DNA from: Candidatus Latescibacterota bacterium
Lineage (GTDB): Bacteria > Latescibacterota > UBA2968 > GCA-2709665
Length of the DNA: 64,000 nt
Reading direction: 5' to 3'
Assembly: GCA_965116875.1 (NCBI GenBank)
Contig: OZ220733.1
Coordinates: 256,001 to 320,000, forward strand
The notes under the pieces are model-generated. The model was not told the DNA's origin, ran no database searches, and saw only the letters and a list, made by a program, of their open reading frames with translations. Made by a program: the position numbers and the translations under genes. Shown piece after piece: positions 12,861 to 13,079 of the stretch (positions are counted from its first letter, which is position 1; each line of letters begins with the position of its first letter).

Positions 12861-13079
12861 CTATTGGGCTGTATGCTTTTCCCGTGGAGTGGGTCCATTC
12901 TGTGATTTTTTGATTGTGACCGCGTTTGTCATTGGTGGCGGCAGAATGGGGAACCACGGCCATTCGCACAACGTCGCTTCAATAGGAGTCGTCGATCCAA
13001 AGCATCCGCAAATTTTCCCCCTATTGTCTGAAACACCGTTGACCGGGAACAGTGAAGGTTTGGGATTATTCAGTGCCAT
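12861..13079 (-). CDS. Putative RiPP precursor peptide 1 (72 aa)
   Basis: Perfect RBS AAGGAGG lies 6 nt before ATG 13079. It is the first gene after the sigma54 promoter and sits directly before the rSAM. Sequence: [72 protein letters not shown]. Confidence 0.75.
   Translation of the reverse strand: [72 protein letters not shown]

Follow-up and report, generated by a model that had tools for sequence, protein, structure and literature searches.

A 72-amino acid open reading frame in the window analysed here (a 64,000 nt stretch of DNA from a Candidatus Latescibacterota bacterium) is confirmed by its homologues, genomic context and coding signal as a real, conserved peptide gene. On balance we think it likely that its product is the precursor of an unnamed RiPP family, encoded in Latescibacterota, Gemmatimonadota and Poribacteria MAGs, on which a neighbouring radical SAM (rSAM) enzyme would form a thioether; these are, in the main, single-Cys peptides, and the modification would probably be one thioether at Cys38. 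Comparison of family loci shows that the peptide gene belongs to a conserved unit, in which a gene for a sensor/sigma-54 activator is followed by a predicted terminator, a putative -24/-12 promoter, the peptide gene and the gene for an RRE-rSAM-SPASM enzyme. Coordinates of these features, and of possible accessory genes downstream, are collected in Table 1.

Table 1. Positions within the window of the peptide gene, its sequence elements and neighbouring features
Feature	Position	Strand	Basis or remark
72-aa precursor peptide gene, including stop	12861..13079	minus	ORF, homologues, coding signature
Leader, residues 1-22, motif L10-x-x-x-N14-G15-x-x-D18-x-x-G21	13014..13079	minus	Alignments; putative RRE in rSAM
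Core, residues 23-50	12930..13013	minus	Near-clade alignment
Cys38 codon, proposed thioether donor	12966..12968	minus	Family-wide conservation
Polar follower tail, residues 51-72, variable	12864..12929	minus	Alignments
Shine-Dalgarno sequence AAGGAGG	13092-13086	minus	6 nt 5' of peptide ATG
RRE + radical SAM + SPASM peptide maturase	11362..12795	minus	Profiles, alignment, structure match, tree
Sigma-54 type -24/-12 promoter (predicted), GGTACGTGGTTTGC	13185..13198	minus	Pattern match; 105 nt 5' of peptide ATG
Terminator-like hairpin CGCTTGTGgtctcaCACAAGCG + T-run, ends regulator gene	13213..13234	minus	Terminator prediction
1,628-aa regulator: Ser/Thr kinase + AAA_16/STAND + TPR + GAF + sigma-54 AAA+ activator + Fis-type HTH	13466..18352	minus	Pfam, NCBIfam
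ABC exporter, fused permease + ATPase, possible accessory	6068..7750	minus	Domain profiles
QhpE-like S8 protease fused to TIGR04066/DUF1611 domain, possible accessory	3327..5243	minus	NF049966
ACP gene	3076-3339		Near S8/DUF1611 fusion

A conserved peptide gene upstream of the rSAM gene

The peptide ORF runs on the minus strand from an ATG at 13079 to a stop codon at 12863-12861. A preliminary description of this DNA had listed a perfect ribosome-binding site, a leader with the element LFPVN, a core, a Pro-rich segment and a polar tail, and all of these are present on that strand. LFPVN corresponds to residues 10-14 and the core as originally quoted to residues 23-44, followed by ILPPP and then by the polar tail; we place the leader/core boundary, by inference, after residue 22. 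In clade 2, a clade of the family distinct from the near clade that includes the window peptide, the tail is acidic rather than polar (DDDDWDDFDQAE). An alternative start at GTG 13139, which would give a peptide of 92 residues, was rejected because the homologues all begin at an ATG preceded by a Shine-Dalgarno sequence.

Sequence searches identified three 72-amino acid homologues of the window peptide, with 85, 72 and 60% identity. To survey the family more broadly, 38 rSAM homologues were aligned and species-representative genomes were scanned for related loci, giving a set of family loci (L001-L044, labelled Latescibacterota, Gemmatimonadota or Poribacteria) of which 41 include upstream sequence. 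The occurrence of similar peptides beside close rSAM homologues had been named beforehand as a test of the precursor proposal, and a small ATG-initiated ORF with a strong ribosome-binding site (AAGGAG-type sites precede the homologous ORFs also) was found 5' of the rSAM gene in 41 of 41 loci. Thirty-eight of the 41 share one peptide design, comprising an L-x-x-[IV]-N-G leader, one conserved Cys and a Pro-rich motif (L-P-P-P/PPLPFP); in L037, L040 and L041, where the enzymes are 43-45% identical, the cores have diverged and the leader is of the same kind. In most cases the peptide ORF ends 45-75 nt from the enzyme (1-74 nt in 39 loci), the small ORF lying ~330 nt from the enzyme in L022 and L028 because an extra small ORF sits between the two.

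The pattern of substitution points to a coding sequence: among 33 clade-2 genes, differences per site reach 0.324 at the third codon position, compared with 0.21 and 0.208 at the first and second. A search of Rfam found nothing above threshold in the peptide region, with one sub-threshold match just upstream. Given the homologues, the constant presence of the ORF across the loci, the codon-position signal and the lack of an Rfam family, the ORF is more than a chance reading frame. Its family has no name of its own: the family profile found 23 matches among 1.84 billion representatives (19 small proteins and four large repeat proteins), and a word-indexed search returned 267 clusters, none of which carries a Pfam domain and for which the sole name given is 'hypothetical protein'. 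The window peptide itself matches 0 families in Pfam and 0 in NCBIfam at E<=10. A second candidate precursor in the window (9342-9121) was rejected as a family member (hmmsearch E 4.2).

The start of the rSAM gene

The longest version of the rSAM ORF, of 535 amino acids, begins at GTG 12969, in a different frame from the peptide ORF, and overlaps the latter by 109 nt, with the GTG falling across the Cys38 codon. That the precursor lies hidden under a mis-started rSAM ORF, as had been suggested, is thus borne out. Had the enzyme truly begun at 12969 this would have counted against the precursor, but comparison with relatives places the start between GTG 12846 and ATG 12795, that is 3' of the peptide stop. 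This conclusion draws on the lengths of homologues, the onset of profile matches, a conserved N-terminus and closure of the frame in relatives. Around 30 homologues with >60% identity are 474-494 amino acids long; family profiles first match at residue 9 of the 477-residue form starting at ATG 12795, to which the conserved N-terminal sequence MHLF(Q/R)T corresponds; and the database call for the window enzyme, at 494 amino acids, implies a start at GTG 12846 (535 - 494 = 41 codons). Of 39 loci, 27 have an rSAM frame that closes before it reaches the peptide stop and nine more allow an overlap of <=17 nt, a larger overlap being possible only in L001, L003 and L034. The long rSAM frame is open in the close relative L001 too, which is expected given how similar the two sequences are and carries little weight.

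One conserved cysteine and no fixed acceptor

Over 42 aligned peptides N14 is invariant and L10, G15, G21, I23, C38, P44, P47 and P49 are each at least 90% conserved, so that LFPVN, proposed earlier as a leader element, is seen to form part of a family-wide motif. Within the near clade (14 sequences) the invariant residues are M1, N14, G21, P32, C38, W40, P41, L46, P47, P48 and P49, with F43 invariant or nearly so; W40 is not conserved in clade 2. The TRRKL sequence at the N-terminus of clade-2 peptides was considered as a Tat signal and rejected, there being no hydrophobic region after it.

The window peptide has three Cys residues (Cys24, Cys26 and Cys38), and it had been proposed that these form several crosslinks to Glu and Thr. 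Conservation does not favour such a scheme. Cys24 occurs in the window peptide alone (1/14 in the near clade), and the position of Cys26 is Cys in seven near-clade peptides, Tyr in four and Gln, Arg or Leu in three. Of the possible acceptors, Glu39 is Glu in 3/14, whilst the Glu34 position is occupied by Glu in six, Lys in five and Gln, Phe and Tyr in one each; its clade-2 equivalent is Glu, Lys or Gly, 3-4 residues before the Cys. The same picture emerges from database members carrying the leader motif. Among 135 of these, the core contains one Cys in 117, two in 16, three in one and none in one. When 124 were anchored on the conserved Cys, a Tyr was found 10-11 residues before it in 95, Glu (100 sequences) or Lys (17) 3-4 residues before it, and V-P-P-L-P-F-P 7-13 residues after it. 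No Asp, Glu, Thr or Asn acceptor position conserved family-wide was found. With one donor Cys conserved and no conserved acceptor of these kinds, the multi-link scheme is unsupported.

Placement of the rSAM enzyme

A CxxxCxxC motif and seven further Cys are invariant in the 38 rSAM homologues. In NCBIfam the window enzyme scores 247.0 bits against the NlpM model, 245.9 against ScfB, 237.8 against PapB and 229.5 against QhpD, with the next best model at 150.5 bits; all four curated cut-offs (518.7, 425, 340 and 453, respectively) are missed. Among solved structures the top match is 5wgg (E 7e-57), which we take to be CteB and in which the SPASM cysteines align with those of the window enzyme. 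Sixteen of the 38 family enzymes have a detectable PqqD/RRE domain; the N-terminal 100 amino acids of the window enzyme match PqqD with E 0.0053 and 17.5 bits, below the gathering score of 23.4.

To place the family among its relatives, a FastTree phylogeny of 38 rows was built with 14 of the 38 family sequences, reference QhpD, NlpM and ScfB genes from plasmids and PapB-like genes from loci L045-L055; the tree was midpoint-rooted and several long branches were flagged. The family enzymes form one clade (support 99), which joins ScfB with a support of 81. NlpM branches outside this pair, and the opposite side of the tree is occupied by QhpD together with the PapB-like enzymes. A sister relation between the family enzymes and ScfB is therefore suggested, with weak support. 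Scores, structural match and tree agree in placing the enzyme, in line with the preliminary description, in the thioether-forming ScfB/PapB/QhpD/NlpM group. As expected of the ranthipeptide class, an rSAM/SPASM enzyme akin to ScfB, PapB and QhpD with an N-terminal RRE (the window's own RRE match being sub-threshold) is found here adjacent to a Cys-bearing precursor with leader and core. Because every curated family cut-off is missed, the reaction that the enzyme catalyses may nevertheless differ from those of the named families.

An arylsulfatase is encoded elsewhere in the window (44976-46454). A link between it and the rSAM enzyme was rejected, the similarity of the latter to anaerobic sulfatase maturases being weak (model 105 bits, structure E 7e-19).

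A putative dedicated sigma-54 activator

Besides the rSAM enzyme, the large regulator is the only constant neighbour of the peptide gene family-wide, with a same-strand homologue immediately 5' of the latter in 39 of the 41 family loci; both exceptions are contig ends. A pattern corresponding to the predicted promoter (GGYACG-N4-TTGC) matches the window at a single site, 13198-13185, where 0.38 matches are expected, although the pattern alone yields at least one site in 32 of 100 shuffles. It recurs ~45-110 nt 5' of the peptide ATG, on the gene strand, in 35 of 41 family loci; other matches number four in those family loci and one in 36 non-family loci. In clade 2 the promoter consensus, TTGGCACGGATCTTGCA, has the textbook form, and an equivalent hairpin and T-run lie 5' of it. 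The loose sigma-54 pattern GG-N10-GCA was uninformative, with 158 matches and 158.19 expected. A second promoter-like string at -70 (TTGGCGCCACGTGTTTGA) was set aside, as it has no -12 GC and is absent from L002 and L003.

No terminator was predicted on the minus strand between the peptide and rSAM genes. With a -24 GG/-12 GC promoter and an adjacent AAA+ activator gene, the two genes qualify as a predicted sigma-54-dependent operon.

Downstream genes and copies of the module

Genes downstream of the enzyme are less constant. In the window they encode a beta-propeller protein, a second small ORF, a thioredoxin-like protein, the ABC exporter, a rhodanese, the S8/DUF1611 fusion, an ACP and a Kelch protein, a cluster that as a whole is common only to the window and its near-identical relative L001 (99.4% nucleotide identity over 1844-8565). 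The S8 domain of the fusion scores 143.8 bits against the QhpE-like model NF049966, for which the cut-off is 165. The trio of ACP, S8/DUF1611 fusion and thioredoxin-like genes recurs only in L001, L007 and L028, the same three loci in which alone the QhpE-like protease and ABC exporter are again seen near the module, both being absent from most family loci; across these loci we found no protease or exporter conserved with the module. Elsewhere in the family the downstream genes vary, encoding GT4 glycosyltransferases, AraC regulators, a second rSAM enzyme, UvrD and proteins of unknown function. In Latescibacterota the module is present in two or three copies on several chromosomes, and the copies have diverged.

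Proposed maturation and its alternatives

How might the product be made? In the model that we favour, the activator would turn on sigma-54-dependent transcription of the peptide and rSAM genes, and the leader would dock as a strand on the PqqD-like RRE at the N-terminus of the enzyme. The enzyme would then take a hydrogen atom from carbon in a residue close by, for which the upstream segment 26-36 is the likeliest place, and would bond this carbon to the Cys38 sulfur, itself bound by an auxiliary Fe-S cluster in the manner of CteB and ScfB, to give a product with one thioether macrocycle. Thioether chemistry is described for ScfB, PapB and QhpD in the available parts of PMC8172795 and PMC7876137, and in the former an open site on the auxiliary cluster of CteB is reported to bind the substrate Cys. 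In the sub-clade to which the window belongs, a second link or a disulfide may form through Cys26. In this window only, trimming and export of the product could fall to the QhpE-like protease and the ABC exporter; since most family loci have neither, the product may instead have an intracellular role or depend on general machinery.

Several observations weigh against the thioether model. A single core Cys (117 of 135 members) compares with four to six in known ranthipeptides, there is no family-wide acceptor position, and the enzyme falls below all curated cut-offs. The ScfB sister grouping has a FastTree support of 81, the RRE match of the window enzyme lies below the gathering score, and the module lacks a conserved protease or exporter.

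Some of the same observations could be accommodated if the peptide were an rSAM substrate that acquires something other than a thioether, such as a C-C or C-O cross-link on aromatic residues (W40 or F43 in the window, the Tyr at the Cys26 position elsewhere), an epimerised residue or a Cys38 oxidised as by the anaerobic sulfatase maturases. The near-clade conservation of W40-P41 and F43, the prevalence of Tyr at the Cys26 position (95/124) and the sub-cut-off scores of the enzyme are all consistent with such a modification, and PMC10288494 indicates that the chemistry of SPASM enzymes can vary within a single clade. We nonetheless regard it as unlikely. The four top-scoring named families make Cys thioethers or are close kin of those that do, and the sulfatase maturase model and structure match far less well (see above). 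Moreover, the residue conserved across both clades is the Cys, whereas W40 is not conserved in clade 2.

A further reading is that the small ORF is not a substrate at all, encoding instead a small protein that serves the sensor-activator in a regulatory or adaptor role, or acting as an upstream ORF that controls translation of the rSAM gene. It would fit with the regulator being the one invariable partner besides the enzyme, with the lack of a conserved protease or exporter and with the finding that, in a comparison with L001 (below), divergence is greatest in two places, the peptide region and the regulator's sensor part. The locus has, however, a standard RiPP architecture, with a PapA/QhpC-style leader, an RRE and a Cys core beside an enzyme of Cys-cross-linking type, and conservation of a motif at the protein level across 30% identity is not what an upstream ORF with a purely translational role would show. 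We consider this reading very unlikely and retain the thioether model.

Comparison with QhpC

The preliminary description had likened the peptide to a miniature QhpC, and in its strict form this would make it a homologue of the QHNDH gamma subunit with several Cys-to-Glu/Thr thioethers (at Cys24, Cys26 and Cys38) and possibly a Cys-Trp quinone-type link. Parts of the comparison hold good. The Cys/Trp string that had been attributed to QhpC is present in the real QhpC proteins that were fetched, and these start MKHLTPAN, MKHLKPIN or MKPLN, in keeping with the likeness drawn between the leaders. The resemblance amounts to motif-level echoes, in a stretch compared with GCTTSFDPGWE, in C-x-W-P (invariant in the near clade) and in LFPVN when set beside LTPAN and LKPIN. 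The rSAM/SPASM enzyme belongs to the same broad group as QhpD, and in this window alone a candidate QhpE-like S8 protease, scoring below the model cut-off, and an ABC exporter are encoded downstream. A hydrophobic-x-x-hydrophobic-N leader is best read as a common style of RRE binding, not as homology.

Direct comparison of the sequences gives a different picture. BLASTP of the window peptide against real QhpC gives an E value of 0.30, and hhalign a probability of 1.1% over eight columns with the near-clade profile and 0.46% with that of the whole family. Against the PDB, the family profile matched no QhpC chain, the sole match being a chance one to HicA3 (E 0.98), and, as described above, the peptide matches nothing in Pfam or NCBIfam, each of which we take to contain a gamma-subunit model. 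QhpC proteins are 107-108 amino acids long with invariant C35, C55, C65 and C69, in contrast to a window peptide of 72 amino acids in which Cys38 alone is family-conserved.

Gene organisation differs too. All four of the qhp operons fetched, from plasmids, have the order peaA-peaB(qhpD)-qhpC-peaD, with qhpC after qhpD, between the alpha and beta subunit genes and in company with qhpA and qhpB, whereas the window peptide gene precedes the rSAM gene. It had been noted that the window has no QhpA or QhpG gene, and a scan of 44 window ORFs agrees, finding no qhpA, qhpB or qhpG. The QhpC protein goes on to form part of an enzyme, as a subunit that carries a Cys-Trp quinone and three Cys-to-Asp/Glu links (PMC7876137). 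With QhpD on the far side of the enzyme tree, Cys24, Cys26, Glu34 and Glu39 poorly conserved in the near clade, and the protease and exporter missing from most family loci, a miniature QhpC is very unlikely and the least probable of the readings considered here. Beside three of the four qhp operons a monooxygenase gene is annotated.

Comparison with SCIFF, freyrasin and NlpM systems

In the known ranthipeptides the number of Cys is 4-6 and the acceptors are fixed, the pairing being Cys-X3-Asp for PapA, Cys to Asp or Glu for QhpC and Cys-Thr for SCIFF. The closest parallel to the window module is with the SCIFF systems (ScfA-ScfB and CteA-CteB), in which a small precursor gene likewise lies directly 5' of that for an RRE + rSAM + SPASM enzyme in a minimal two-gene unit without a dedicated protease or exporter. 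ScfB is the nearest named clade in the tree, and 5wgg the best solved structure. In SCIFF a Cys is the cross-link donor (PMC8172795), as is proposed here. SCIFF cores, however, have around six Cys (six in 49 amino acids in the ScfA that was fetched) where the window family usually has one, and at 245.9 bits for a ScfB cut-off of 425 the enzyme falls outside the SCIFF definition. The peptide itself matched no family in NCBIfam, a library that includes curated ranthipeptide-related models. SCIFF systems also, to our knowledge, have no Pro-rich motif, long follower tail or linkage to sigma-54 and a giant regulator.

The leaders of PapA-like peptides of the freyrasin type (MLKQIN, MLKRLN) resemble the L-x-x-[IV]-N of the window family, and at 237.8 bits PapB belongs to the same broad enzyme group. 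PapA-like cores consist of Cys-X3-Asp repeats, according to the accessible part of PMC8172795, whereas the window peptide has no such repeat, and the PapB-like enzymes group with QhpD, away from the window family. NlpM (TIGR04064) is the top NCBIfam model for the enzyme with a score that is under half of its cut-off (247.0 against 518.7); the Nif11-type precursor fetched, of 92 amino acids with a Nif11 leader, is unlike the window peptide, and the locus does not qualify as a Nif11/NlpM system.

A possible role in signalling

Literature searches found no description of this peptide family. Clusters called as 'ranthipeptide' by antiSMASH have been reported in Latescibacterota MAGs, without detail in the available part of the source (PMC12993501), and one supplement to PMC10288494 contains no mention of Latescibacterota, Gemmatimonadota or Poribacteria. 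The 267 clusters define an unnamed family of putatively rSAM-modified peptides without a Pfam or NCBIfam model, confined to poorly known and mostly uncultured phyla. A single-Cys core breaks the multi-Cys rule of the known ranthipeptides, and the constant partner of the module is a putatively dedicated sigma-54 sensor-activator, not a protease or exporter. Two questions become directly testable: which reaction an ScfB-like enzyme carries out on a core that has one Cys and lacks a fixed acceptor, and whether such peptides are signals. The locus is also a concrete example of an over-long ORF call masking a precursor gene.

We tentatively raise the idea, which we would not put forward as the likeliest outcome, that the module serves peptide signalling and is not an antibiotic cluster, with a single-Cys, rSAM-cross-linked peptide tied to, and perhaps sensed by, a private sigma-54 activator. 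On this idea the cross-link itself might be novel in kind, with Cys38 joined, for instance, to a carbon irrespective of the side chain that bears it, or to the Tyr/Cys position that precedes it by 12 residues. The comparison of the window with L001, a single genome pair, bears on this. The peptides are 72% identical (pS 0.178, pN 0.139), and the kinase, STAND and TPR parts of the regulators 75-85% identical (pS 0.25-0.33). The GAF, AAA+ and HTH parts, by contrast, are 98-100% identical (pS 0.04-0.06) and the rSAM genes differ by a pS of 0.065 and a pN of 0.02, so that the output domains of the regulator and the enzyme are ~97-100% identical between the two. In this one genome pair, the mosaic resembles that of the pherotype systems AgrD/AgrC and ComX/ComP.

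A recurring gene trio and variants of the precursor family

Three genes recur together a few kilobases 3' of the rSAM module (precursor peptide plus rSAM). One is ACP-like, another encodes a QhpE-like S8 protease with a fused TIGR04066/DUF1611 P-loop domain, and the third encodes a thioredoxin-like membrane protein. The trio is found in three separate arrangements, that shared by the window and its near-identical relative L001, and those of two further loci of the precursor-1 family, L007 and L028, and may constitute a separate maturation module. In two loci of the clade-2 sub-group (L022 and L028) a conserved 52-amino acid ORF is inserted between the precursor gene and the rSAM gene. 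Among the matches from the peptide-family profile search of protein representatives, P0133, P0137, P0139 and P0140 are large proteins (642-2,689 amino acids) in which 3-7 repeated stretches match the leader part of the profile, possibly a chance repeat motif.

Features of the window and of related loci
Feature	Location	Strand	Remarks
BtrH_N / C39-like peptidase-fold protein	window 2-553	-	at cluster end; extends beyond window
Secreted Kelch-repeat protein	window 1326-2462	-	at cluster end; weakly similar to radical copper oxidase GlxA
Gene trio	window 3076-5243 and 7790-8482	-	downstream of rSAM module
Gene trio, other loci	L007:14355-17450; L028:15271-18260
Second small ORF, 73 aa	window 9121-9342	-	start AAAGGGAGG-N5-ATG
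Dispersed repeat, ~200 nt	window 5860-6080, 9400-9620, 34335-34555		three direct copies, all intergenic
Arylsulfatase gene	window 44976-46454	+	PRK13759, 427 bits, below cut-off of 481
Extra conserved ORF, 52 aa	L022:2656-2814; L028:9684-9842		MSVQ.LIKKRDHLAYLSLLYAIWGNEVRSEAL...

Other genes in the window

The second small ORF, downstream of a gene for a DUF5128-like six-bladed propeller (9652-10875), matches nothing in Pfam or NCBIfam and does not belong to the precursor-1 family (hmmsearch E-value 4.2). Its C-terminal part, which includes SCDATNEIEVALCNSGDTYWSEWYNI, echoes both the CDATDW/Cys-X3-Asp cores of PapA-like precursors, found at two loci with PapB-like enzymes (L045 and L050), and the ...IEATLC... 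of precursor 1.

The arylsulfatase gene has no dedicated maturase next to it. The studied rSAM is unlikely to serve this enzyme, given its score of only 105 bits against the sulfatase-maturase model.

Mosaic divergence and a dispersed repeat

The window and L001 diverge in a mosaic fashion, with patches at window positions 12762-13361 and 14962-19460 flanked by sequence of 96-100 % identity. The peptide gene and its promoter are 88-90 % identical at the nucleotide level, and the kinase/STAND/TPR part of the regulator, together with the neighbouring solute-binding protein, 67-91 % identical; the GAF, AAA+ and HTH part of the regulator, lying between the two patches, is 97-100 % identical. L001 also carries ~470 nt (14239-14710) that are absent from the window near 8562, at the boundary between blocks of 99.4 % and 91 % identity.

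The three copies of the dispersed repeat have a mean column identity of 82 %. An Rfam search of the region around one of them (9350-9660) gave no match. One copy lies immediately 5' of the rhodanese gene and another immediately 5' of the second small ORF.
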